Of a stretch of 39,733 nucleotides of DNA, positions 1 to 38,750 are shown piece after piece (position 1 is the first letter of the stretch; each line of letters begins with the position of its first letter). Below the pieces are notes generated by a model. That model made no database searches and was not told the origin of the DNA. It saw nothing but the letters and a program-made list of their open reading frames with translations. This DNA comes from a virus. The DNA lies in IMG/VR virus record IMGVR_UViG_3300045988_046012, positions 1 to 39,733 of that record; one strand, written 5' to 3'. The translations under genes and the position numbers were made by a program.

Positions 1-99
1 ATTTTTTTTGTGACAATCCGGTGCTGGCGCGGATTGCTTTAATTTGTTCCGATGGAGTCATATCTCACCATCCTTAAGCCACTTGTTGACATACTCAAC
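1..99. repeat. Terminal direct repeat, copy 1 (identical to 39635-39733); circular-assembly overlap or terminal redundancy
   Basis: Hand alignment: a+8T+gtgacaatccggtgctggcgcgg...catactcaac is present at both window ends, 99/99 identical. Confidence 0.95.
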
Positions 100-249
100 T
101 ACAGTATCCATATCAATATCATCCAGATCGTCATCATCTTCGGACAGCCCCACCCCTGCAAGGATTTGTTGGGCATCCTCCAGCGAGACCCGGGAAATGT
201 CTGCGGGTAATTTATCGTAGATGGTTAGCGCTACATCGTAGTCAGTCAT
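58..249 (-). CDS. Small, very acidic protein (63 aa), first gene of an operator-controlled operon; candidate anti-defence protein
   Basis: ORF track; strong SD on the minus strand (caaGGAGGaaacaaaaATG); run of D/E (SEDDDDLDDIDMD); stop overlaps the start of the HTH gene by 4 nt (ATGA) once the contig is circularised. Confidence 0.8.
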   Translation of the reverse strand: MTDYDVALTIYDKLPADISRVSLEDAQQILAGVGLSEDDDDLDDIDMDTVVEYVNKWLKDGEI

Positions 250-292
250 TTTTGTTTCCTCCTTGTATTAAGTATCTCCATTAACTGTCTTT

Positions 293-321
293 ATTATACT
301 ACACATGTGTGTAGTTGTCAA
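293..321 (-). promoter_or_regulatory. Sigma-70-type promoter with palindromic operator in the spacer (copy 1)
   Basis: Minus strand reads TTGACA (316-321), 17-nt spacer, TATAAT (293-298). The spacer holds the inverted repeat CTACACA-tg-TGTGTAG (299-314). Same architecture as 39456-39484. Confidence 0.75.
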
Positions 322-416
322 GCATCGAATGATATTTTTAAGAGATTTTTATGGGATTTTTCCCGCATGGTGGATTTACCAGAAATTTGGTACGGTATAG
401 GCAGGAGGTGGGGCAA

Positions 417-794
417 ATGTGGCGCTCTTACAACGCAAACCCAGACCGAGAAAATGTTGGAGACTGCGTTATCAGATCCATTTGCGCCGCAGAAAAATTG
501 CCGTGGGAGGACACATACATAGGGATATGTGCCAAGGGCCTCCTGCTCCACGATTTGCCGTCAGCTAACCGCGTTTGGGGAGCGTATCTCAGGCAGAAGG
601 GCTATACACGACACGCCCTGCCAAACACATGCCCGGACTGCTACACTGTGGCAAACTTTGCGGCGGATCACCCAACCGGAACGTATGTTTTGGCGCTCCC
701 CGCCCATGTCGTATGCGTCCGTGATGGTGACTGGATCGACACATGGGACAGCGGCGACGAGACACCCATCTACTATTGGACTAAGGAGGGATAG
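417..794 (+). CDS. Hypothetical protein, first gene of the accessory operon; possible Cys-His-Asp (papain-like) fold
   Basis: AGGAGG at 403-408, 8 nt before ATG 417 (internal Met of ORF 351..794). The pattern NVGDC ... AHVVCVRDG ... DTWDSG suggests a Cys/His/Asp triad; motif-level only. Confidence 0.7.
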   Translation: MWRSYNANPDRENVGDCVIRSICAAEKLPWEDTYIGICAKGLLLHDLPSANRVWGAYLRQKGYTRHALPNTCPDCYTVANFAADHPTGTYVLALPAHVVCVRDGDWIDTWDSGDETPIYYWTKEG

Positions 795-2754: not shown

Positions 2755-3159
2755 ATGAGTATGCAGGCAATGGACGAGCTGCGGGAAATGCTCTGCAAAG
2801 AGCTGGACGAGATCAGCCGGAAGGGCGAGCTTGGAGCTGGTGACCTAGATATCGTGCACAAGCTGACCGATACCATCAAAAATATTGACAAAATCGAGAT
2901 GCTGGAAGATGACGGTTATAGCCGTGACGGCGCATGGGAGGCCGACATGCGCGGCAACTATGGGCGCGGCAATAGCTACGCCAGTCGCCGGGGAACCCAT
3001 TATGTTAAGGGACATTATAGCCGTCGTGGGACTGACGGCTATAGCCGTACCGACAGCATTGAGGCATTCCGAGACCGTGCGCGGGAGATGATGCGGAACG
3101 CAACCGGCGAAGAACGCGAAGTGCTCCAGCGCTGCGTGGACGCTCTGGATCGGGCATAG
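2755..3159 (+). CDS. Hypothetical protein with helical ends and a central G/Y/S/R-rich low-complexity segment
   Basis: SD aaGGGAGGgatatataATG; central segment DGYSRDGAWEADMRGNYGRGNSYASRRGTHYVKGHYSRRGTDGYSR. Confidence 0.75.
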   Translation: MSMQAMDELREMLCKELDEISRKGELGAGDLDIVHKLTDTIKNIDKIEMLEDDGYSRDGAWEADMRGNYGRGNSYASRRGTHYVKGHYSRRGTDGYSRTDSIEAFRDRAREMMRNATGEEREVLQRCVDALDRA

Positions 3160-3173
3160 CCCAGGAGGGGCGT

Positions 3174-3482
3174 ATGCTTGATTTGGACGAGATTAACGCC
3201 GCCATCCAGGAACTGGAAAACGGCGAAACCACCCTAGCAAACTGCTCCAAACTAGCTACACTGCACACAGTAAGAGATCATCTAATAGAGACCGACTATG
3301 CGCCGTACTCCTATGCTTCTGCACCAGTGGTGGCCGTTTCTGGTGATAGCGATTTTTTACGTACCATTTTGGGCCGCGACAATCAGGCAGTGATGGATAT
3401 CATGGATGATCTCATGGATACGCTCAGGGTATCAATGCCCAAAGCGTATCGCAGCGTGATGGAGCGACTGCGGAGCATATAA
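3174..3482 (+). CDS. Hypothetical protein, last gene of the accessory operon
   Basis: SD ccAGGAGGggcgtATG; followed directly by a terminator hairpin. Confidence 0.75.
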   Translation: MLDLDEINAAIQELENGETTLANCSKLATLHTVRDHLIETDYAPYSYASAPVVAVSGDSDFLRTILGRDNQAVMDIMDDLMDTLRVSMPKAYRSVMERLRSI

Positions 3483-3484
3483 GT

Positions 3485-3508
3485 AGAGGGGCGGATAACC
3501 GCCCCTCT
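3485..3508. terminator. GC-rich hairpin, bidirectional terminator between the accessory operon and the integrase gene
   Basis: agaggggcgg-ataa-ccgcccctct, perfect 10-bp stem, followed by attatttgg. Confidence 0.75.
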
Positions 3509-3545
3509 ATTATTTGGTTATAATTAACTGTGAGCACACCAAAGG

Positions 3546-4871
3546 TTAAATATAGCCAGCTAATTCAAAATTTATTTCGCCGTCGTTGCTGACGGAGATT
3601 TTTTTAACGGTACGCCTCCAAAACTCACGACGCTCTGACGGCTCTAAACTGCCGTAAACATCCATCGTGGATTTTAATGCATCTACATCTATTTGCTCCT
3701 TTTCTTCCGGCTCCGGGGCTTCTAGCTGCTTCCTGAGCGATGTGTAGTCCTTTGCGTATACGTCGCGCTCTATCAAGTCGGACAGGTACAGATCTTTTAG
3801 TTTTTTCATTTTGCGCTTTATCGCCGCCTTGTCTACAGTTTGCTGATTGGATGCGTTCTGTTGGGCGATCTCTACATTATAGTTGATGCATCCGGATATG
3901 ATGTGATCTACCATGTACTGCTCCAGATCCTTTTCGCGCTCCCGGCGGCGATGGACGCAGGAGCGGCCTGCATAGCTCGGACACTTGTAGTACACGTATT
4001 CGCCGCCGTGGACGTGGGACATGGTGACGGACAGGCGACGGCCACACTCGGCGCAGAACACTATGCCGGTGAATAGATATATATGCTTTTGCGTAAAATC
4101 TCCGCTGTGACGGGTGGAACGTTCTGCCATGATGGACTGAGCAAGGGCAAAATCCTGCGGTGGGACGATGGGCGGGTATAACTGCTCACCGTTATCCGCA
4201 ACGCCAATATACCGCTTATTTTTGAGCATCTGCTTTGTGTTTTTGTAGGAGCGGGTGATACCATACTCGGATAGGAGATAGCGCCCAGTTGAGGTGACAG
4301 ACTGAGTGGCGATAAAGTGCCTGAACACATCTCGGACAACAGGGGCGGTTTCTGGGTCTTCCGTTAGCTTCCCTTTGACGATTTTTAGTCCAAGCGGTTG
4401 CGTGCCGTGATGGCACAAACCATTCTCCCGCTTATTTTTGTTTATGGTTTTGATTCGCTCAGATGTACGGTCAGCCTCTGACTCCGCGACCGATAGCATA
4501 ATGTTGACCTTAAATCTTCCGGCGCTGGTTTCTGTCTCATACTCCTCCTCAATCGTTTTCCAGCAGACGCGGTGCTCGTCCAAAACGTCCTGAACTTTAT
4601 AATATTCTTTGACATTTCTGAACCACCGGTCTAGCTTGGTAAATACAATCATCTCAATTTTACCAGCTCTAACATCGTTCAAAAGCCGCTGCAAATCCGG
4701 ACGCTTTGATGCTGGCTTTCTGGCTGATACTCCGGCGTCAACGTACACGCCCACTATCGTATGATGGTTTTCGTTTGCCCATTTTTTCAAATTTTCCTGC
4801 TGCACCCCGATTGACAAGCCGTGTATGGCCTGCTCCTCTGTGGACACTCGCGCATACAGCGCCACACGCAT
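3546..4871 (-). CDS. int: Large serine recombinase (phage integrase)
   Basis: N-terminal resolvase motif MRVALYARVSTEEQ, recombinase domain, Cys-rich zinc-ribbon region (CAECGRRL ... YYKCPS), C-terminal coiled coil; 441 aa. Confidence 0.9.
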   Translation of the reverse strand: MRVALYARVSTEEQAIHGLSIGVQQENLKKWANENHHTIVGVYVDAGVSARKPASKRPDLQRLLNDVRAGKIEMIVFTKLDRWFRNVKEYYKVQDVLDEHRVCWKTIEEEYETETSAGRFKVNIMLSVAESEADRTSERIKTINKNKRENGLCHHGTQPLGLKIVKGKLTEDPETAPVVRDVFRHFIATQSVTSTGRYLLSEYGITRSYKNTKQMLKNKRYIGVADNGEQLYPPIVPPQDFALAQSIMAERSTRHSGDFTQKHIYLFTGIVFCAECGRRLSVTMSHVHGGEYVYYKCPSYAGRSCVHRRREREKDLEQYMVDHIISGCINYNVEIAQQNASNQQTVDKAAIKRKMKKLKDLYLSDLIERDVYAKDYTSLRKQLEAPEPEEKEQIDVDALKSTMDVYGSLEPSERREFWRRTVKKISVSNDGEINFELAGYI

Positions 4872-16137: not shown

Positions 16138-16455
16138 ATGGCTGATTACATTGACCGGCAGGCCGCAATTGCGGCACTGAGGAAATTTGCGGAGGAATGC
16201 AAGGATAGTACGGAGGCTGCAACTGCGGCGGCTATGGCGATTTCGGTGATTTCGAGGCTGCCGGGGCCGTGGGCGAGCGTGGGGGATAAACCACCACCCA
16301 AAAGACTCGGCGTGGCAGTAATCGTGCGTTATGGTAATTGTACATTTGTGAGCCACGCATGGTTAAACAGCTATGGTAAATGGGTCGGCATCCCGGCTGG
16401 TGGAACCGTCAGCAGTTGGGCCCCCATGCCGGATGTGCCGGAGGTGGCAACATGA
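16138..16455 (+). CDS. Hypothetical protein (DUF551-like C-terminus)
   Basis: SD GAGGAGAGG upstream; C-terminal W/P-rich end SSWAPMPDVPE. Confidence 0.7.
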   Translation: MADYIDRQAAIAALRKFAEECKDSTEAATAAAMAISVISRLPGPWASVGDKPPPKRLGVAVIVRYGNCTFVSHAWLNSYGKWVGIPAGGTVSSWAPMPDVPEVAT

Positions 16456-16556
16456 CAAATATTGTCTATAACACGGACTGCATGGTTGGGCTGCGGGAAT
16501 ACCCAGACAAGTATTTTGACCTTGCGGTTAATGAGATTCGGGAGGCGGTGAAGTGA
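16452..16556 (+). pseudogene. 34-codon stub matching the N-terminus of an N6A/N4C DNA methyltransferase
   Basis: MTNIVYNTDCMVGLREYPDKYFDLAV matches the usual lead-in to the DPPY motif, but continues NEIREAVK-stop. Confidence 0.6.
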
Positions 16557-18148
16557 TTGCCCACCTTGGAGATATCACAAAAATTGACGGTCTCAATGCC
16601 CCGATTGTGGATTGTGTAATTGGAGGATCGCCGTGTCAGGACCTGTCGGTCGCCGGGAAGCGTGCTGGTTTGGCCGGCAAGCGTTCCGGTCTCTACATGG
16701 AGCAAATCAGATTGGTCAAAGAAATGAGGGAGCAGGATGAACGAAATGGACGGACAGGTGAGTCTATTCGGCCCAGATACATGGTCTGGGAAAACGTCCC
16801 CAGAGCGTTCAGCTCCAATAAAGGGAAAGACTTTGCCGCAGTCATCGAAGAAGCAATCAAAATCGTCGAACCGGAAGCCCCCGGTGTTGAAGTCCCTGCA
16901 AAGGGGTGGCCTACCTGGGGTGGCTACCACGATGGAGTGGCAGGACGATGGAGCTTGGCTTGGCGAGTGCTTGATGCGCAATACTGGGGAGTCGCCCAGC
17001 GCCGCCGTAGAATCGCGCTTGTCGTGGATTTTGGAGGAGACACCGCAGGAGAAATACTATTTGAGCGCCAAAGCGTGTGCTGGGATATTGACACGAGCAG
17101 AACGGAGGGGCAAGGAACTCCCGATGGAGTTGCAGGCTGCATTAAAGATACAGTCTGGTGCATTAAAGGCAACGCAATAGACCGAAACACACAGCAGAAC
17201 GGTGGCTTTGTGAGAGAAGACGTATCTTATACCTTAGATGCTACTGATCACCATGGCGTTTTTGCTCCTGGAATGTGTGCTGCGTTCAAACTCGGAAATT
17301 CTGAGAAAGCAAGGTCAATCGGGTATAGCGTTGAATGCGCACCCACTCTAAATGCGGAATGCGGAGGGAACAAACCTGCAATATTGGATATGACTCATGC
17401 TTGCGATGTGATCCGAGATTGTGGTCAAATTGTACCAACTCTCCAGAGCAGGATGGGTACTGGAGGGAATCAAGTTCCGCTTGTATTTGATGACGCAAGC
17501 AAGCCCAATATTAAATGTTATAACCCATGGGATTCCCAATCTGCAAGAATATATGATGCAGATGGTATTTTTCATTCTCTCAATGCGAACGAAAATGGCG
17601 GGCAGAGTAGAGATTCCATATTTTATAAGAAATCCGTAGATAACATTGAATATAGTCCTGATATTAGTAGAACTTTGTTAGCTAAAAGCGCTTGTTCAAT
17701 GGCCTATGATCTTGAAACATATTGTGTTCAAAATAAATATGTTAGAAGATTAACCCCGCTTGAATGTGAAAGACTTCAAGGGTTCCCCGATGGATGGACT
17801 GATATCGGAGATTACATAGACAGCAACGGACGAAAGCGGAAAACATCGGATAGCTCCAGATATAAAGCACTTGGAAATTCCATTGCGATTCCTCCGTGGA
17901 CGTGGGTACTGAATCGGATTTGCGGGAACTACGACAGACCGGCCACTATGGCGAGTTTATTCGACGGAATCGGAGGGTTCCCTCTTATCTGGGAAAGGAT
18001 CAATGGTGAGGGCTCTTGCCTTTGGGCTTCTGAGATTGAAGAATTCCCAATGGCAGTTACACGGAAACGATTTGGAGGTATGCCGCGGACAGGTATGGAT
18101 ACGGGGAAGGCCGCACAGAAAGGCCGGAGAGGAGTATTGAGGAAATGA
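16553..18148 (+). CDS. C5-cytosine DNA methyltransferase with permuted motif order (III/IV-VI-VIII-TRD-IX-X, then I-II)
   Basis: GDITKI, GGSPCQDLSVAG (IV), ENV (VI), QRRRR (VIII), RRLTPLECERLQGFP (IX), GNSIAIP (X), then in frame MASLFDGIGGF (I) and WASEIEEF (II). GTG 16553 has GGAGG 7 nt upstream. Confidence 0.75.
   Translation: MIAHLGDITKIDGLNAPIVDCVIGGSPCQDLSVAGKRAGLAGKRSGLYMEQIRLVKEMREQDERNGRTGESIRPRYMVWENVPRAFSSNKGKDFAAVIEEAIKIVEPEAPGVEVPAKGWPTWGGYHDGVAGRWSLAWRVLDAQYWGVAQRRRRIALVVDFGGDTAGEILFERQSVCWDIDTSRTEGQGTPDGVAGCIKDTVWCIKGNAIDRNTQQNGGFVREDVSYTLDATDHHGVFAPGMCAAFKLGNSEKARSIGYSVECAPTLNAECGGNKPAILDMTHACDVIRDCGQIVPTLQSRMGTGGNQVPLVFDDASKPNIKCYNPWDSQSARIYDADGIFHSLNANENGGQSRDSIFYKKSVDNIEYSPDISRTLLAKSACSMAYDLETYCVQNKYVRRLTPLECERLQGFPDGWTDIGDYIDSNGRKRKTSDSSRYKALGNSIAIPPWTWVLNRICGNYDRPATMASLFDGIGGFPLIWERINGEGSCLWASEIEEFPMAVTRKRFGGMPRTGMDTGKAAQKGRRGVLRK
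16737..17180 (+). CDS. Candidate overlapping gene (+1 frame) embedded in the C5-MTase gene, 147 aa
   Basis: ORF track; GAGGG 6 nt before ATG 16737; non-random sequence ending KYYLSAKACAGILTRAERRGKELPMELQAAL. Confidence 0.4.
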   Translation: MNEMDGQVSLFGPDTWSGKTSPERSAPIKGKTLPQSSKKQSKSSNRKPPVLKSLQRGGLPGVATTMEWQDDGAWLGECLMRNTGESPSAAVESRLSWILEETPQEKYYLSAKACAGILTRAERRGKELPMELQAALKIQSGALKATQ

Positions 18149-19344: not shown

Positions 19345-19495
19345 CAAGATAGAGCGCGGCACACCTCTCGACGATGTGCAACAGGCCGCGACATAATGCC
19401 CTCTACGGGCAAAGCGTAAGCCTGTGACGCATCAGGGCACCGCTAGCTCCCGGCGGGGTACAAATAGGGAGCGCAAAAACGGAGGAATGTATGCG

Positions 19496-20656
19496 ATGGA
19501 GATACAATACAGGCGGTTAAGCGAGATCACGCCGTACGATAAAAACGCAAAGACCCACGACAAAAAACAGATTGCCAATGTGGCGGAGAGTATCAAGCAA
19601 TACGGCTTTGTGCAGCCGATTGTGGTTGACCGAGACGGAGTTATTGTGATCGGGCACTGTAGGGCATTGGCGGCGAAGAAGCTGGGCATGAAAGAGGTGC
19701 CTTGCGTCTGCGTGGACGATCTGACCCCGGAGCAGGTGAACGCCCTGCGGCTGGTGGATAATAAGAGCAACGAGAGTGACTGGGATTTTGACCTTCTGGC
19801 TGATGAGCTGCCGGGGCTTGACCTGTCCGCTTTTGACTTTGACTGGGGCCTGCCGGAAGACCAAACGGAAGACATTGCTGAGGACGAAGCACCGGAAGTC
19901 GACGAAGAATCGGAGCCCATTACCAAGATGGGTGATATTTGGCAGTTGGGCAGACATAGGCTGATGTGCGGAGACAGCGCGTCCACGGATTGCGTACAAA
20001 AACTCATGGGGGGGGCACAAGCGGATCTTTTGCTTACAGACCCGCCGTATGGTGTTGATTATACAGGTAAAACAAAGGACGCGCTCAAGATCGAGAATGA
20101 TGCAAAAAGTGATGACGAGTTTATTGCATTTTTGCAGGCGGCATTTGAAGCGGCCGATTCCGTGATGAAGCCCGGTGCGGTGTTTTACATCTGGCACGCC
20201 ATTCTGAAAACGTACGCCTTCGAATCAGCGTGCCAGATGGTCGGGTGGGAAGTTCGGCAGGTTTTGATTTGGGTCAAAAACGCAATGGTTATGGGTCGGC
20301 AAGACTATCAGTGGAAACACGAGCCTTGCCTTTACGGTTGGAAATCTGGCGCGGGGCATTTGTGGGCATCTGACAGAAAGCAAACAACGGTGCTTGAGTT
20401 TGACCGACCGACGAAGAACAAAGAGCACCCGACGATGAAGCCCGTTGCGCTTTTTGACTATCAGATCAAAAACAACACCAAGGGCGGCGATATTGTACTT
20501 GACCTGTTTGCGGGGAGCGGTACAACCGTCGTTGCGTGTGAGCAGAACGGCAGAAATGCTTACGTTATGGAATTTGACCCGCGCTATTGCGACGTGATTG
20601 TAAAGCGATGGGAAAACCTGACAGGGGGAAAGGCGGTGCTTCTGAATGAAAATTGA
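19496..20656 (+). CDS. ParB-like nuclease domain fused to an N6A/N4C DNA methyltransferase
   Basis: N-terminal ParB-N motifs (PYDKNAKTH, GHCRALAA), then LLLTDPPYG and a C-terminal AdoMet-binding region DLFAGSGTT; GGAGG 10 nt before ATG 19496. Confidence 0.85.
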   Translation: MEIQYRRLSEITPYDKNAKTHDKKQIANVAESIKQYGFVQPIVVDRDGVIVIGHCRALAAKKLGMKEVPCVCVDDLTPEQVNALRLVDNKSNESDWDFDLLADELPGLDLSAFDFDWGLPEDQTEDIAEDEAPEVDEESEPITKMGDIWQLGRHRLMCGDSASTDCVQKLMGGAQADLLLTDPPYGVDYTGKTKDALKIENDAKSDDEFIAFLQAAFEAADSVMKPGAVFYIWHAILKTYAFESACQMVGWEVRQVLIWVKNAMVMGRQDYQWKHEPCLYGWKSGAGHLWASDRKQTTVLEFDRPTKNKEHPTMKPVALFDYQIKNNTKGGDIVLDLFAGSGTTVVACEQNGRNAYVMEFDPRYCDVIVKRWENLTGGKAVLLNEN

Positions 20657-20751: not shown

Positions 20752-21120
20752 ATGGCAAGGCCAAGAAAGGAAATAGATCAGAAGCAATTCGAGAACCTCT
20801 GCGGCCTGCAATGCACACTTGTGGAAATCTGCGGCTGGTTTGACGTGACCGATAAAACACTGGATAGTTGGTGCAAACGCACATATCATGCCAGTTTTTC
20901 CGAGGTATTCAAGCAAAAGCGAGGAGCGGGGAAAATTTCACTGCGTCGGAGTCAGTGGCAGCTTGCGACGAAGAGCGCGAGCATGGCTATTTGGCTGGGC
21001 AAGCAGTACCTGGGGCAGCGCGACGTGGTAGAGCAGACAATCGCTGTTGACACCGTCAAGGACGATGCGCTGAGCCAGAGCCTCCGAGAGCTTGCAGACG
21101 GCTTAAAATCCGATGATTAG
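20752..21120 (+). CDS. terS: Terminase small subunit
   Basis: AAGGAGGG before the ATG; N-terminal HTH-like region; immediately upstream of and overlapping terL. Confidence 0.7.
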   Translation: MARPRKEIDQKQFENLCGLQCTLVEICGWFDVTDKTLDSWCKRTYHASFSEVFKQKRGAGKISLRRSQWQLATKSASMAIWLGKQYLGQRDVVEQTIAVDTVKDDALSQSLRELADGLKSDD

Positions 21121-22348
21121 CGCAAAGCAAAAGCAGATTCTGGCTTTCCCGTACTCAAAATATGACGCGCTGATATGTGATGGCGCTGTTCGATCCGGCA
21201 AAACATCCGTAATGATATGGGCTTTTGTGGATTGGGCTATGCGAGAGTTTGACGGGCAGCGATTCGGGGTCTGCGGTAAAACTGTGGATTCTGCCTCTAA
21301 AAATATCATTGTGCCCTTTATCTCTATGACGTTGGCTAAAGAGCGGTATGCGCTCAAATGGCGGAGAGCTGACCGGATATTAGAGGTAAGACGGGGCCAG
21401 CGCGTCAACTATTTTGAGGTGTTTGGTGGCAAGGATGAAAGCTCGTTTATGTTGATTCAGGGCCGGACGATGGCCGGAGTGTTGCTGGACGAGGTGGCAC
21501 TTATGCCGCAGAGTTTTGTTAATCAGGCTCTTACCCGGTGCTCCGTAGATGGGGCACGGTATTGGTTTAGCTGCAACCCTTCCAACCCGCAACACTGGTT
21601 TTACCTGGATTGGATACAAAATCACGACAAGCATAACGCCCTGTATCTGCGGTTTGCAATGACCGATAACCCTAGCCTTAGTGATAAGACACTGCAGCGG
21701 TATCAGACCATGTACACCGGCGTGTTTTATGACCGGTATATCAGGGGCTTATGGGTGGCCGCTGAGGGGCTGATCTATGATATGTTCGGGGGCGATAACA
21801 TCACGGACGAGACCCCGACAAATGGCGAATGGTATATAAGCTGCGACTACGGCACGCTTAACCCATTTTCTGCTGGCCTTTGGTGCTGGGACGGGAAAAC
21901 CGCAACGAGAGTGCGGGAATACTACTATTCGGGGCGGGAAAACCGCATGAATAAGACGGATGAGGAATATTACCATGAAATGGAGACCTTGGCGGGAGAA
22001 CAAAACATACGCGCAGTCGTGGTCGACCCCTCGGCGGCTAGCTTTATCGAGACGATACGGCGGCACAGACGCTTCAACGTCCGAAAGGCGGTCAATGATG
22101 TTGTGCCAGGAATCACAACCACTCAGCGATACCTAGCAGATGGCACGATCAAGATACACCGGAGCTGCAAGGATGCAATCCGGGAGTTTGGCCTATATCG
22201 GTGGGACGAGAAAGCCACCGATGACAAGCCCATCAAGGAGAACGACCACGCGATGGACGATATCCGCTATTTTACAATGACAATTCTCCGGCACAAAGTG
22301 GGAAAGCCGGAATACAAGCCGCTTTGGAACGGAGGGATAGGCCATTAA
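21113..22348 (+). CDS. terL: Terminase large subunit (PBSX / Terminase_3-like)
   Basis: Walker A GAVRSGKT, Walker B LLDE, C-terminal nuclease-type acidic motifs (HAMDDIRY). Confidence 0.9.
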   Translation: MISAKQKQILAFPYSKYDALICDGAVRSGKTSVMIWAFVDWAMREFDGQRFGVCGKTVDSASKNIIVPFISMTLAKERYALKWRRADRILEVRRGQRVNYFEVFGGKDESSFMLIQGRTMAGVLLDEVALMPQSFVNQALTRCSVDGARYWFSCNPSNPQHWFYLDWIQNHDKHNALYLRFAMTDNPSLSDKTLQRYQTMYTGVFYDRYIRGLWVAAEGLIYDMFGGDNITDETPTNGEWYISCDYGTLNPFSAGLWCWDGKTATRVREYYYSGRENRMNKTDEEYYHEMETLAGEQNIRAVVVDPSAASFIETIRRHRRFNVRKAVNDVVPGITTTQRYLADGTIKIHRSCKDAIREFGLYRWDEKATDDKPIKENDHAMDDIRYFTMTILRHKVGKPEYKPLWNGGIGH

Positions 22349-22361
22349 GACATATCAGGAT

Positions 22362-23702
22362 TTGCTTGCAGTGGGCGACAACGAAAAAGAGCGGATGCGA
22401 TTTATCCGGGCGGCAATTGACGAGCATAAAAGCAGCGCTGAGTACCGGATCGCATTTGATGCGGAAGAATATGACCGGCAGCGGAATGTGACCATTTGCC
22501 GGTACCAGAAGTTTCTGTATACGCTGTCCGGGCAGGCTGTGCCGGACAACTACAGCGCCAATTACAAGCTGGCCTCCAACTTTTTCAACCGGTTTGTCAC
22601 CCAGGAGAACCAATACCTCTTGGGAAATGGCGTGATGCTGGAGGACAGGAAACACAAAGAGGCGCTGGGTCAGGATTTTGACAACAAGCTGCAAAACATG
22701 GGGCGGAATGCACTGGTACAGGGCGTGAGCTTTGGTCTTTGGAACCTGGATCATCTGGATGTGTTCAAACTGACGGAGTTTGTGCCGCTCTATGACGAGG
22801 AGACCGGTGCGCTAATGGCTGGAATCCGCTTTTGGCAGATTGACGCAGATAAGCCGCTTCGGGCTGTCCTCTATGAGACGGATGGGTATACCGACTATGT
22901 CAGACCCAAAAATGATGATATGCGGATCAAAAGGGAGAAGCAATCATACAAGCTGATACGTCAAAAGTCGGAGGCCTGCGCGGAGGAAGTCTTGCACGGC
23001 GAAAACTACCCAGGGTTCCCCATCGTCCCAATGTGGGGCAACCCACACCATCAAAGTGAGCTTGTGGGCCTGCGGCAGAGTATTGACGCTTACGACCTGA
23101 TAAAATCCGGCTTTGCCAATGACCTTGACGATGCTGCGACGATCTACTGGATCATCAACAATGCCGGTGGAATGGATGATCTGGACATGGCGCAGTTTTT
23201 GGAGCGGCTAAAAACTGTAAAAGCCGCCGCGCTTAATGCGGATGATGGAGTGTCGGCGGAAGCGCACACCATCGAGGTGCCGTATGAGAGTCGGGTGGCG
23301 TACCTACAGAGGCTGGAGAGCGACATGTACAAGGACTACCAGGCGTTGGATGTTACTAACCTGGTAGGCGGCGAAAAGACTACCGTGGAGATCAAGGCGG
23401 CGTATCAGCCGCTTGATAACAAAGCGGATCAGTTTGAATACTGCGTGCTGGATTTTCTCCAGCGGCTGTTTGAGATCGTTGGGATTGATGACAACCCGGC
23501 TTTCCAGCGCAATCAGATTGCCAATCTCTCTGAGCAGACCCAAATGGTGCTGATGGCGGCGGAATATTTGGATGAAGAAATGCTGCTCAAAAAGCTGCCA
23601 TGGCTGACCGCCGAGGAAATCGAGGATATGCAGAAACGAAAAGCGGCTGATGAAGCAGGCCGCATTATTGCAGGGCCGGTGATTGACGATGGCAACAGCT
23701 GA
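22362..23702 (+). CDS. Portal protein (SPP1 gp6-like)
   Basis: 446 aa, directly after terL. Start uncertain: TTG 22362, or ATT 22344 behind GGAGGG. Confidence 0.85.
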   Translation: MLAVGDNEKERMRFIRAAIDEHKSSAEYRIAFDAEEYDRQRNVTICRYQKFLYTLSGQAVPDNYSANYKLASNFFNRFVTQENQYLLGNGVMLEDRKHKEALGQDFDNKLQNMGRNALVQGVSFGLWNLDHLDVFKLTEFVPLYDEETGALMAGIRFWQIDADKPLRAVLYETDGYTDYVRPKNDDMRIKREKQSYKLIRQKSEACAEEVLHGENYPGFPIVPMWGNPHHQSELVGLRQSIDAYDLIKSGFANDLDDAATIYWIINNAGGMDDLDMAQFLERLKTVKAAALNADDGVSAEAHTIEVPYESRVAYLQRLESDMYKDYQALDVTNLVGGEKTTVEIKAAYQPLDNKADQFEYCVLDFLQRLFEIVGIDDNPAFQRNQIANLSEQTQMVLMAAEYLDEEMLLKKLPWLTAEEIEDMQKRKAADEAGRIIAGPVIDDGNS

Positions 23703-24690
23703 TCTAGGGCATAAATTAGCGGATCAGGAGCTTGCGAAACTCGAACAGCGGATATCTCAAGCGTATGGCGATGCGGCTGCGGAGCTATCAGAAACCATTG
23801 GTGCTTATTTTGAATCGTTCCGGCAACGGGACGAAGAAATGAAAAAGATGCTCCAACGTGGCGAGATCACCAAAGCGCACTATAACCAGTGGCGGTTAAA
23901 CCAGATTGGGCGCGGCGAACGCTATAAGCAGCTGCGTGATAAGATCGCCGAGCGTATGACCGACGCGACGGAGACTGCGACCAGCTATATTAACGATGTA
24001 ACCCCTGGCATATACAGTCTCAACCGTAACTGGACGGCATACGAAATTGAAAAGGTTGCCGGGAACGCAGATTTTACGCTCTGGAATGAGCAGGCTGTAA
24101 AAAGGCTCATAAAAGACAACCCCGACATGCTGCTGTATTACCCAGGAGACATAGCGATAAAATACGGGGATCACATCAAATGGATCCGCGAATGCGTCGG
24201 GAAGGCGATAACAAGTGCCATTTTGCAGGGCAAGAGCATCACTAAGATTGCAAACGAGCTACAGCAGAAGATTCCCGGCCTTAACAGGAGATTTGCAATA
24301 GGGACGGCCAGGACTGCAATAACCAATGCTCAGAATGCAGGGCGGCAGGATCAATATCTGCTTGCAAAGCAAATGGGAATTAAAGTCCGGAAGCGCTGGT
24401 TTGCGACGCTGGACGGGCGAACCCGCCATGCTCACGCCATGGCGGATGGTCAGACGGTTGACGTTGATGCAGATTTTGACGTTGACGGCTATAAAATGGC
24501 ATATCCAGGAGATAGGCGTGCGCCCGGTTATTTGCTCTATAATTGCCGCTGCACCATGCGGACGGTTGAGCCGGAAGGCATAGAGGCAGAGTCAAGGCAG
24601 CGAGTAGCCAAAGACCCGGAGACCGGAAGAAACATCTTGATCTCCGATATGACATACCAAGAGTGGCTGAGATGGAAGGAGGGGCAATAA
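23689..24690 (+). CDS. Head morphogenesis protein (SPP1 gp7 / Mu F-like)
   Basis: Follows the portal gene; C-terminal motif LYNCRCTM is typical of the family. Confidence 0.8.
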   Translation: MATADLGHKLADQELAKLEQRISQAYGDAAAELSETIGAYFESFRQRDEEMKKMLQRGEITKAHYNQWRLNQIGRGERYKQLRDKIAERMTDATETATSYINDVTPGIYSLNRNWTAYEIEKVAGNADFTLWNEQAVKRLIKDNPDMLLYYPGDIAIKYGDHIKWIRECVGKAITSAILQGKSITKIANELQQKIPGLNRRFAIGTARTAITNAQNAGRQDQYLLAKQMGIKVRKRWFATLDGRTRHAHAMADGQTVDVDADFDVDGYKMAYPGDRRAPGYLLYNCRCTMRTVEPEGIEAESRQRVAKDPETGRNILISDMTYQEWLRWKEGQ

Positions 24691-37518: not shown

Positions 37519-37732
37519 GAAGAAAATGTGGTGGAAGGCCGCCGGTATCCGCGCCGTGAAAACCGTGGCGCAGACGGCTGTAGCAATGATCCCCGCCGCC
37601 GTGACCATCGGGGCGGTGGACTGGGTAACTGTGGTAGGCACTGCGGCGCTGGCGGGCGTCGTGAGCCTGCTGACCAGCATCGCGGGACTGCCGGAAGTGG
37701 ACGAGAAGGAGGATAACAATGCATCTGTATAA
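37508..37732 (+). CDS. Holin
   Basis: 74 aa, two hydrophobic helices, charged C-terminus, immediately before the endolysin gene. Confidence 0.8.
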   Translation: MTIKKKMWWKAAGIRAVKTVAQTAVAMIPAAVTIGAVDWVTVVGTAALAGVVSLLTSIAGLPEVDEKEDNNASV

Positions 37733-38750
37733 GCATTACAGCGTCAATAATCCCTGCTACAAAAACAACGTCAACAAGGCTGACAGCCGGTACACCACGT
37801 TCCAGCAGCGCGGGCCTCTGGGGCTGATGCTGCACAGCGTGGGGTGCGCCCAGCCCAGCGCGAAGGTGTTTGCAGATCAGTGGAATCGGGGCGGAATTGA
37901 GGTTGCTGTGCACGCAGTGCTCCAGGCGGACGGCACCGTGTATCAGTGTCTCCCGTGGAATTATCGCGGCTGGCACGCAGGCGGAAACGCCAATAACACC
38001 CACGTGGGCGTGGAAATGGCGGAGCCGTCTCAGATCAAGTACACCGGCGGCAGCACCTTTACTGTGCTGGACAAGGCAGCGGCACAGGCACAGGCACAAG
38101 GCACATACCAGGCGGCGGTGGAGCTGTTTGCCAAGCTCTGCTATGACTACAAGCTTGACCCGCTGGCGGACGGCGTTATTATTAGCCACCATGAGGGATA
38201 CCTCAGGGGCGTGGCCTCCAACCACGGAGACCCGGAACACCTCTGGAGAGGCCTGGGCCTTAGCTACACCATGGACGGCTTCCGCCGGGACGTAAAGGCC
38301 GCAATGCCGACTGCATCCGGCAGCGCCACCAACAGCCGGAAGTATAAGCAGGGCTGGAACAAGGACGATAAGGGCTGGTGGTATGCGGACACCTCCAATA
38401 CCTACTACAAGGGCCGCTGGGCCAAAATCGACGGCAAGTGGTACAGCTTTGACAAGGAGGGCTATATGTTGAGCAATACGTGGCAAGTAGAGGCCGGAGG
38501 TGACACCTACTATCTCGGCGCGGAAGGAGATATGCAGACAAATATGGTTGTGGGACTGGGCAGTGACGGCAAGCTCCAGCCCAGTGAGCATTGGTGCCAC
38601 CTGCTATCGGATGTGCCCAGCGGGTACCGCGCAGAGCTGGACGCGCTTATTGCAAGCGGCAAGTTCAAGGGCAAGAGCGGCACCGGCGAAAATCTGGTGC
38701 TGGATATGCCGCTGAGTGCACTGCGGGTGCTGATTATCCTGAGCCGGTAA
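37719..38750 (+). CDS. Endolysin: N-acetylmuramoyl-L-alanine amidase (Amidase_2-like) with cell-wall-binding repeats
   Basis: N-terminal amidase motifs (HSVG ... AVHAV ... GWHAGG ... ISHHE) and GW/YY repeats (GWWYADTSNTYYKGRWAKIDGKWYSFDKEGYM). Confidence 0.85.
   Translation: MHLYKHYSVNNPCYKNNVNKADSRYTTFQQRGPLGLMLHSVGCAQPSAKVFADQWNRGGIEVAVHAVLQADGTVYQCLPWNYRGWHAGGNANNTHVGVEMAEPSQIKYTGGSTFTVLDKAAAQAQAQGTYQAAVELFAKLCYDYKLDPLADGVIISHHEGYLRGVASNHGDPEHLWRGLGLSYTMDGFRRDVKAAMPTASGSATNSRKYKQGWNKDDKGWWYADTSNTYYKGRWAKIDGKWYSFDKEGYMLSNTWQVEAGGDTYYLGAEGDMQTNMVVGLGSDGKLQPSEHWCHLLSDVPSGYRAELDALIASGKFKGKSGTGENLVLDMPLSALRVLIILSR

Follow-up and report, generated by a model that had tools for sequence, protein, structure and literature searches.

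The 39,733-nucleotide virus sequence IMGVR_UViG_3300045988_046012, which was analysed over its whole length and is called the window below, contains a gene for a C5-cytosine DNA methyltransferase (C5-MTase) whose conserved motifs follow each other in the circularly permuted order III-IV-VI-VIII-TRD-IX-X-I-II, where TRD is the variable target-recognition domain. The best explanation overall, which we consider highly probable, is a natural, single-chain and probably active enzyme of a temperate gut phage, with the Type B arrangement otherwise found in engineered enzymes, whose gene contains a second, putative embedded gene. Judged by its sequence, the window gene is the natural counterpart of the engineered Type B enzymes, and it is a C5-MTase by every sequence criterion but motif order. 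The natural Type B permutation is a newly recognised variant, which is common in gut phages.

The open reading frame (ORF) has 531 codons on the + strand, from a GTG at 16553 to a stop ending at 18148, and both this start and the GGAGG 7 nt 5′ of it, which the first-pass annotation of this DNA had pointed out, were confirmed from the ORF list and the raw sequence. The same annotation had described the protein as opening at motif III, with motif I absent from the N-terminus, and all of its motif labels agree with the motif positions in the window protein, where GDITK occupies residues 6-10 and FDGIGG residues 470-475. Motifs I and II are reached from motif X in the same frame and without any stop, as had been stated, while the distance then given as about 20 residues is exactly 19 when counted from GNSIAIP to MASLF; the protein indeed ends 35 residues past motif II. 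The alignment to Dcm-type profile hidden Markov models proposed there gave scores above the cut-off for both PF00145 (Pfam; 1e-34 in four stretches, 120.9 bits against a cut-off of 22) and TIGR00675 (119.4 bits, cut-off 100.65). The protein has the Pro-Cys of motif IV, the ENV of motif VI, the QxRxR of motif VIII, and motifs IX and X C-terminal to the TRD, as well as the elements of an S-adenosylmethionine (AdoMet) site, namely the FxGxG of motif I, the acidic residue of motif II and the Asp of motif III (GDI, residues 6-8). The canonical linear order from I to X is absent.

A phmmer search against the PDB aligned residues 467-511 of the window protein with residues 15-57 of M.HhaI, and residues 6-59 with residues 59-112, which puts the break point precisely between M.HhaI residues 57 and 59, in the II-III loop. 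By the motif order and the M.HhaI alignment, the protein is an exact circular permutation of the canonical sequence. As in the engineered Type B enzymes, the new N-terminus lies between motifs II and III, and the old C- and N-termini are linked in one chain. The tail past the old II/III break differs in length and sequence between relatives. The TRD is AT-rich at 17400-17800 (GC content 0.35-0.43, versus 0.51-0.58 in the catalytic parts), and the data suggest that a recognition module within it was recently swapped. There is no homopolymer of 6 or more nucleotides in the window methyltransferase gene. In two relatives that are 82% and 78% identical to the window protein (P0002 and P0003) the modules differ at about 17625-17740, in the late part of the AT-rich stretch.

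The motif order was then compared with that of related proteins. A word-index search with the window protein returned 8000 matches, and the best 120, which were 51-96% identical, were analysed; they start with M(L/I/T)HLGDITKI and, where coverage was reported, they cover 86-100% of the query in one local alignment. A motif scan placed X before I in 120/120 of these matches, and the spacing at the junction, which the first-pass annotation had proposed to look for in relatives, was fixed at 29 residues from X to I in all of them; PCQ was intact in 118/120. An exhaustive HMMER scan of 1.84 billion cluster representatives gave 3322 proteins at E ≤ 1e-30. The best 150, each of which represents a separate 50%-identity cluster, were classified, and they included 107 complete Type B proteins, with motif IV near the N-terminus and motifs I-II at the C-terminus, and three canonical ones. 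The overall length of the relatives ranges from 374 to 1201 amino acids, and the long proteins among the best 150 representatives are explained by long TRDs or inteins. Intein-like insertions split motif IV at the catalytic Cys in the dmt gene of P1 isolate OP279344 (L011; GGTPC/FTAGH...VVHN/CQAFS), in P0367 (GGSPC/FPAGT...VVHN/CQDLS) and in P0282.

The permuted gene occurs in many independent sources. The contig collection has one relative (P0039) in 181 of its index blocks, from independent Logan, ENA and JGI samples, and many of these contigs are about 40 kb long. Among the 23 contigs that were read, four loci from different samples have the gene in mid-contig between DUF6378 and DUF551 genes, and genes for SSB, HNH, RusA and a ParB-N6/N4 methyltransferase are also near the P0039 loci. 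A copy 96% identical to the window gene lies within a 41-kb contig (L005). Full permuted matches in GenBank phage records come from human faecal phage contigs and from the cultured Faecalibacterium phages FP_Toutatis and Lelie, and the GTDB genomes contributed 21 loci in metagenome-assembled genomes (MAGs) of Oscillospiraceae, Oscillibacter, Faecousia, Ruminococcaceae and other Clostridia, which originate from human, yak, sheep and chicken guts.

Conservation was analysed in an alignment of 127 sequences with about 50% identity to the window protein. Invariant columns of the core are P27, C28, Q29, E80, V82, T401, E404, L408, G441, N442 and S443, those of the transposed module are L469, F470, G472, G474 and G475, while about 90 further positions are conserved at 90% or more, N81, Q149, R150, R151 and R153 among them. 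This pattern ranks the I-II module at the C-terminus with the best-conserved parts of the protein and indicates purifying selection on it, and, together with the distribution described above, it shows that the permuted order is a conserved family trait, and neither decay nor misassembly.

The protein structure was predicted with AlphaFold2 using an input of 127 diverse permuted sequences, an earlier alignment of 60 close relatives having been discarded after it gave a predicted local distance difference test (pLDDT) score of 36.5. With the 127-sequence alignment the mean pLDDT was 70 and the predicted template modelling score (pTM) 0.67. The mean pLDDT of 10-residue blocks was 82-97 over residues 1-170, except for the catalytic loop at 30-40 (68), and 87-98 over residues 400-510; as an overall range, both halves of the catalytic domain (residues 1-175 and 400-510) have pLDDT of 85-98. 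The C-terminal module was predicted as a strand (466-469), a helix (475-484), a strand (489-493) and a helix (497-507) with pLDDT of 94-98, and this strand-helix-strand-helix succession is the pattern expected for β1-αA-β2-αB. The top PDB matches in a Foldseek search were all C5-MTases (M.HhaI, M.HaeIII, M.MpeI, DRM and DNMT1), with about 155 aligned columns and root-mean-square deviations (rmsd) of 1.6-3.4 Å; Foldseek depends on sequence order, so that only the III-VIII half aligns well. Matches over 470 columns, with an rmsd of 18-20 Å, were rejected as meaningless. Hence, the permutation proposed in the first-pass annotation is supported by the order common to all of the best 120 matches, by the conserved catalytic motifs, and by the confident models of both halves of the core.

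Several observations weigh against the explanation of the window gene as an active Type B enzyme with an embedded gene. The TRD was modelled at low confidence and is, with the 19 residues at the C-terminal end, the only uncertain part of the model. A structure prediction had been proposed earlier to see whether one complete AdoMet-binding domain forms; both catalytic halves were predicted confidently, while the packing of the I-II module against III-IV into one such domain, which the model suggests, is drawn from pLDDT and pTM only. The window copy has two substitutions, seen in comparison with the 96%-identical relative, at sites where its own clade shows at least 90% conservation: G84R at 16802, which changes the ENVPG of motif VI to ENVPR, and P148A at 16994, just before motif VIII. 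Each of them alters the main-frame protein and leaves the embedded one unchanged, and Ala is usual at the position of P148A in the P1 and Vibrio relatives. The deposited sequences of FP_Toutatis and Lelie are out of frame at a poly-G tract in the gene. For the embedded protein, searches of Pfam, NCBIfam and PDB profiles gave no hint of function. Finally, it was suggested by Albert et al. that the Type B arrangement might lower the affinity for AdoMet in vivo (PMC5944983).

One alternative, which we consider quite improbable, is a two-piece enzyme, in which a peptide of about 65 residues with motifs I-II would also, or even mainly, be made separately from a retained internal ATG (Met466, nt 17948) and would complement the III-X part in trans. 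Such complementation is efficient between M.MpeI fragments 1-61 and 62-395 (PMC5944983), and Met466 is at least 90% conserved. However, the two parts are always in frame, with no stop and with a linker of invariant length, which would be needless for a separate peptide, and some sub-clades have Leu in place of the Met (...ATLGSLFDG in L009, ...AALGSLFDG in P0246). It is very improbable that the locus is a decaying leftover of two tandem dcm genes, consisting of a 3′ part and a 5′ part, and that it encodes no functional enzyme. Two deletions in a tandem pair would produce this arrangement, the G84R and P148A substitutions could be read as signs of decay, and some relatives (L007, L021, L009 and P0018) are frameshifted or have no catalytic Cys. 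On the other hand, a stop between X and I was found in none of 120 relatives and the linker length is fixed, more than 100 clusters at 50% identity retain the order, no or hardly any variation occurs in the I-II module or at any catalytic residue, the gene starts at a conserved Met with a good Shine-Dalgarno sequence, and the models of both halves are confident. That the motif order is an assembly artefact, such as a collapsed repeat or a chimeric join in what is one assembled sequence, can practically be dismissed, because the same junctions recur in many independent samples and assemblers (Logan, ENA, JGI, NCBI MAGs and GenBank phage isolates), including the 96%-identical gene on its 41-kb contig.

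In the preferred explanation of a single-chain Type B enzyme, the chain starts in the loop before motif III and continues through IV, VI and VIII into a modular target-recognition region, followed by IX and X. The old C-terminal helix is joined via a short fixed linker to the old N-terminus, and the first strand-helix-strand-helix of the Rossmann fold, with the FxGxG of motif I and the acidic residue of motif II that serve AdoMet binding, is supplied last. This I-II module would fold back beside III-IV and complete the cofactor pocket. By analogy with other orphan phage methyltransferases, the enzyme would methylate the phage DNA against host restriction.

To place the window gene among the known topologies, it was compared with engineered and natural permuted enzymes. 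Circular permutants of M.MpeI and M.SssI were built by Albert et al. (2018) in the only systematic engineering study published, in which the II/III break was tolerated best: no other permutants were as active as the engineered Type B ones, whose activity was near that of the wild type (PMC5944983). By analogy with these constructs (cp62M.MpeI and cp58M.SssI), the window enzyme is probably active. A survey of REBASE in the same study listed 27 natural permuted C5-MTases, each with its break in the variable region (Type H), and the authors reported the Type B layout as absent from nature and asked why nature does not use the II/III break (PMC5944983). A topology classification preprint of December 2025 gives only topology C (canonical) and topology F (M2.Eco31I, zeta) for m5C enzymes. 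Literature searches found neither a natural Type B permutant nor an overlapping gene in C5-MTases; what came closest, although of another kind, is an HNH insertion that lies out of frame in mycobacteriophage methylases (PMC11855218). The first-pass annotation, which was right about the permutation itself, had overlooked both the engineered Type B precedent and the second conserved reading frame.

The engineered Type B enzymes, including the first group of cpM.HaeIII variants from directed evolution, have the same II/III break and the same order III...X-I-II as the window gene. They are, however, laboratory constructs specific for CG or GGCC, while the window family is natural, with long modular TRDs and the fixed 29-residue X-to-I spacing. 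The zeta or Type H enzymes (M.BssHII, M.Alw26I, M2.Eco31I, M.Esp3I and M2.BsaI) share the fold, are naturally permuted with X before I, and are presumed to have arisen by duplication, as is presumed for the window family. They differ in that their break is in the variable region, which gives the order (TRD-)IX-X-I...VIII, whereas in the window gene VIII, TRD and IX are contiguous and the break is between II and III; the variable-region break is present in two relatives (P0246 and P0325). Plant DRM2 is, like the window enzyme, a C5-MTase with rearranged motif order, and it is active. The order in DRM is VI-X followed by I-V, while in the window protein III-IV precede VI; DRM2 is also eukaryotic, has UBA domains, and matches the window protein only partially in sequence and structure. 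These differences agree with the earlier statement that the break point is unlike those of M.BssHII-type enzymes and of plant DRM. Canonical members of the subfamily, which are the enzymes of Streptococcus Javan phages, the C5 part of P1 Dmt and P0386, have the I-X order and are 32-39% identical overall. They share with the window protein SLFDGxGGFP, WASEIE, GSPCQDLS, WENVPG, WGVPQRRRR, ILFE and RRLTPxECERLQGFPD, as well as the modular kind of TRD and the embedded +1 ORF.

Arguments on how circular permutation shaped the topology of DNA methyltransferases have so far drawn on a handful of natural classes. The variable-region break was the only one known in natural C5 enzymes before, and the more than 100 clusters described here show that gut phages of Clostridia make abundant use of the II/III break, which answers the question posed in the engineering study. 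A Type B class should be added to annotation pipelines and to classifications by motif order (of the REBASE type, or with topology classes C and F), and the natural Type B enzymes could be ready-made scaffolds for split or targeted methyltransferases.

The comparison with relatives also bears on how the permutation could have arisen. It would have started with a tandem duplication, followed by an in-frame fusion in which the stop of the first copy was lost, and then by loss of motifs I-II from copy 1 and of motifs III-X from copy 2. The new start would be a Met that is present in canonical relatives within ...RFPNMKHLGDI.... The canonical relative P0386 has an intact II-III junction (VTKIRFPNMKHLGDITKI, WASEIEPFPIKVTKIRFPNMKHLGDITKI); permuted genes begin at that internal Met and finish just past ...AVTRKRF, and the residue before motif I is the retained old start Met (M466, at least 90% conserved). 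Six representative clusters (P0246, P0311, P0325, P0361, P0367 and P0377) have the Type H/zeta-like order (TRD)-IX-X-I-II-III-IV-VI-VIII. Their X-to-I junction is the same as in the Type B proteins (P0325 YDYDPTMASLFDGIGGFPLLWEQL versus the window YDRPATMASLFDGIGGFPLIWERI), and the II-III junction of these sisters is intact. Two topologies with one fusion junction are what is expected from a fused tandem duplicate that was trimmed at different places. From these junctions both natural topologies appear to come from one fusion, with a fused tandem duplicate as their origin, and the sisters broken elsewhere give direct comparative support to duplication, fusion and truncation. The alternative raised in the first-pass annotation, of two tandem dcm genes, thus fails as simple decay and survives as the likely evolutionary route. 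A full I-X-I-X fused intermediate was not found among the best 150 representatives.

The second gene proposed here is the ORF of 147 codons in the +1 frame of the methyltransferase gene, which spans from just before motif VI to about 55 codons beyond motif VIII. A tblastn search with its translation gave matches in 117 phage records, and all of the matches whose frame was checked, at 13 diverse genes and 15 genome loci, fell in the +1 frame of genes that encode C5-MTases of the WGVPQRRRR...ILFE subfamily. The phages concerned infect Streptococcus, Ruminococcus, Clostridium, Vibrio, Pseudomonas, Enterobacter, Salmonella, E. coli (P1 Dmt) and Mycobacterium, so that the subfamily with the embedded ORF spans phages of Firmicutes, Proteobacteria and Actinobacteria (loci including L006, L011-L019 and L022-L039). 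The ORF is not present in E. coli Dcm. The +1 frame was open for 135-165 codons around motif VIII in 12/12 diverse genes, while synonymous-codon shuffles that kept the protein and the codon usage left a mean of 34-103 open codons (per-gene P 0.001-0.16), and it was also open in 15/15 analysable loci of 17 further loci. About 1150 proteins of about 144-154 amino acids (767 + 390) have been called from it, and their source names are only "uncharacterised" or "hypothetical protein".

The start of the embedded ORF is also recurrent. An ATG or GTG is located 10-24 codons before ENV in the diverse genes (58 in Mycobacterium phage Omega) and in 14/15 further loci, and in the 12 diverse genes checked the start is within 0-8 codons of the upstream stop in the alternative frame. 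GGAG-like sequences are often found 5′ of the start, and the position of the start follows partly from the main-frame codons for KEMRE and NAID. The proteobacterial embedded proteins all begin with MQ(S/L)T.

The codon-position data indicate which part of the embedded ORF is under selection. Over 32 gap-free codons from KY(Y/F)LS in 12 genes, mean pairwise identity was 0.64 in the alternative frame versus 0.35 in the main frame. The entropy by alternative codon position in the 12 genes was 0.77, 0.59 and 1.22 bits, which means that the third position of the main frame is the least variable and its first position the most variable. The main-frame third-position entropy was 1.5-1.7 bits near motif IV, 0.47-0.76 bits over the about 45 codons from ALVVDFGG to the linker, and 1.3-1.8 bits past the alternative stop. 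Between the window and its 96%-identical relative, most changes in the early overlap do not alter the main-frame protein. Past ILFE there are seven changes, of which six alter the main-frame protein; in the alternative frame, four of the seven are silent and the other three amount to two conservative changes. The signature is confined to the C-terminal about 50 codons of the embedded ORF. We conclude on these sequence grounds that the C-terminal about 50 codons encode a peptide under purifying selection, while the about 95 codons before them seem to stay open chiefly to let translation proceed from the start site.

The embedded protein is proposed to be translated from its own ATG, and it could bind the catalytic domain of the methyltransferase as an accessory subunit or as a partner. 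We incline slightly to the reading in which the +1 ORF is a translated, ancient overlapping gene of this phage C5-MTase subfamily, including P1 Dmt, whose conserved helical C-terminal domain of about 50 residues would act in trans by binding to the catalytic domain, either as an accessory subunit or as a regulator, and which a poly-G shift would make the N-terminal assembly domain of a β subunit (alternative domain-TRD-IX-X). It is rather unlikely that the +1 ORF is not a gene, and that its openness and similarity are by-products of the strongly conserved main frame. This would be in agreement with the overlap of the first about 95 codons with highly conserved motifs, where GKTSP and GESP follow from WENVP and WGVPQ, with shuffle P values for openness that reach 0.16 in single genes, and with the product having no family or structure match. 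However, it does not explain why the alternative frame is far more conserved past ILFE, why the inverted order of variability holds over host GC contents of 39-64%, why the changes between the window and its close relative in that stretch mostly alter the main-frame protein and are synonymous in the alternative frame, why the start keeps so close to an upstream stop in 12 diverse genes, or why E. coli Dcm does not have the ORF.

Programmed frameshifting was considered as the cause of the similarity in the alternative frame and was rejected, since the fusion junctions differ in place and there is no single conserved shift site. Frameshift fusions that consist of the N-terminal part of the methyltransferase and the alternative domain were found in FP_Toutatis, P0154, P0204 and P0311, and the junctions in FP_Toutatis, Lelie and a MAG locus (L034) are at poly-G tracts. 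These fusions are indels or phase variants. The called embedded proteins have no Pfam match of their own, and a few frameshift fusions carry PF00145. In PHROGs the embedded protein matches only phrog_16143 (1e-7), which is labelled "DNA methyltransferase". An hhalign comparison of the alternative domain with E. coli Dcm pointed to residues 306-338, the segment after motif VIII at which homology would be expected, with a probability of 1.8% and E = 0.028, which is not significant and serves as a lead only.

The poly-G tracts of the relatives range from G7 to G14 and are located at two fixed sites of the gene. At the first site, "IRGGCDGGG" in the first TRD module, tracts of G7-G8 in three MAG loci (L035, L036 and L038) send the main frame with III-VIII into a stop, and the alternative frame continues through TRD-IX-X-I-II. 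The result is a pair of ORFs with an overlap of about 150 codons, the second of which has the alternative domain at its N-terminus. At the other site, "TWGG" in the main frame, the tract is G7 in L001, which is in frame, G8 in L034, G9 in L041, G9 in FP_Toutatis (L007) and G14 in Lelie (L021), and the methyltransferase is out of frame at this tract in L034, FP_Toutatis and Lelie. Tract length thus sets whether the gene is read as a single chain, as two overlapping ORFs or out of frame. The tracts may be phase-variable or may be homopolymer errors. L039 is also listed among the relatives with poly-G tracts. In Mycobacterium phage Omega (L012) the annotation splits the methyltransferase into two same-frame genes, gp127 (I-VIII) and gp128 (TRD-IX-X), separated by a stop and 6 nt, and a G8 tract is located just past the end of the embedded ORF.

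The nearest parallel to the embedded ORF is M.EcoHK31I, whose activity requires a β polypeptide with a coding sequence that lies wholly within the α gene in a different frame (PMC2836561). M.EcoHK31I is, as is M.AquI, naturally made of two subunits. Like M.EcoHK31I, to which the likeness is by description, the window family has a conserved ORF in another frame of a C5-MTase gene, and the overlapping α-like and β-like ORFs of the three loci with a shift in the first TRD module recall M.EcoHK31I. The M.EcoHK31I β polypeptide carries motif IX, whereas the embedded ORF has no recognised methyltransferase motif, with motif IX being in the main frame. A search with the proteobacterial alternative protein, in which a named relative such as the EcoHK31I β polypeptide could have appeared, returned only "uncharacterised protein". 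If translated, the embedded ORF would add a rare case of same-strand gene overlap with deep conservation among dsDNA phages, one that occurs also in the classic phage P1, and mutations in these methyltransferase genes would have to be designed and read differently. If the reading of the +1 ORF as an overlapping accessory gene is true, then, with Type B and Type H sharing one junction, the family would be a living record of the evolution of topology by duplication, fusion, splitting and overprinting.

A separate lineage on 74-kb contigs (L009/L010, 24 contigs) has lost motif III and the catalytic Cys (EAHLVRQDLSVAGKR; ORF 2865-4571). Its permuted methyltransferase frame is still open over more than 560 codons, and the embedded +1 ORF, which is intact, is the only gene called there.

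Table. Coordinates of the permuted methyltransferase gene, its embedded ORF and the genomic context in the window
Feature	Position (nt)	Residues (aa)	Strand	Basis or remark
C5-MTase gene, circularly permuted (Type B)	16553..18148	531 in total	+	Order III-IV-VI-VIII-TRD-IX-X-I-II
GGAGG, Shine-Dalgarno-like	16541..16545		+	7 nt 5′ of GTG start; sequence reading
Catalytic domain, N-terminal half (III, IV, VI, VIII)	16568..17011		+	Motif positions; aligns to M.HhaI 59-169
Motif III GDITK	16568-16582	6-10	+	
Motif IV GSPCQ, catalytic Cys28	16625-16639	25-29	+	
Motif VI ENV	16790-16798	80-82	+	
Motif VIII QRRRR	16997-17011	149-153	+	
Variable region (TRD), modular	17075..17743	roughly 175-397	+	Length variation in relatives; composition; low pLDDT
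Motif IX RRLTPLECERLQGFP	17744-17788	398-412	+	
Motif X GNSIA	17873-17887	441-445	+	
X-to-I junction IPPWTWVLNRICGNYDRPAT	17888..17947		+	Old C-terminal helix fused in frame to old N-terminus
Transposed AdoMet-binding module: old start Met466, motifs I and II, helix AVTRKRF	17948..18076		+	Aligns to M.HhaI 15-57
Motif I FDGIGG	17960-17977	470-475	+	
Motif II WASEIE	18023-18040	491-496	+	
Non-conserved C-terminal tail and stop, 3′ of old II/III break	18077..18148		+	Variable in relatives; pLDDT < 50
Embedded ORF in +1 frame of methyltransferase gene, ATG start	16737..17180	147 in total	+	GAGGGAG at 16726-16732
Conserved C-terminal domain of embedded ORF ESRLSWILEETPQEKYYLSAKACAGILTRAERRGKELPMELQAAL	16989..17144		+	Overlaps motif VIII, ILFE and main-frame linker
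34-codon ORF, deletion scar	16452..16556		+	Alignment with 96%-identical relative L005 (3145-4004)
Second methyltransferase, ParB-N fused to N6_N4_Mtase	19424-20656		+	
Large serine recombinase	3546-4871		-	
Terminase (large subunit), SPP1-type portal, Mu-F-like protein	21113-24690		+	
Amidase with choline-binding repeats	37719-38750		+	

The window is an essentially complete, about 40-kb genome of a temperate siphovirus-like phage of a Gram-positive gut host. Immediately upstream of the methyltransferase gene, the scar ORF consists of the first 26 codons of an N6/N4 methyltransferase (MTNIVYNTDCMVGLREYPDKYFDLAV, without DPPY) and the last 8 codons of a 61-residue ORF, and its stop overlaps the GTG start of the methyltransferase gene (GTGA). 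The 96%-identical relative keeps both genes intact, namely a 210-residue N6_N4_Mtase gene and the 61-residue ORF (MRVLIACEESKTECMAFRALGHEAYRCDI), the latter of which presumably resembles an N-terminal fragment of another methyltransferase-like Rossmann protein.

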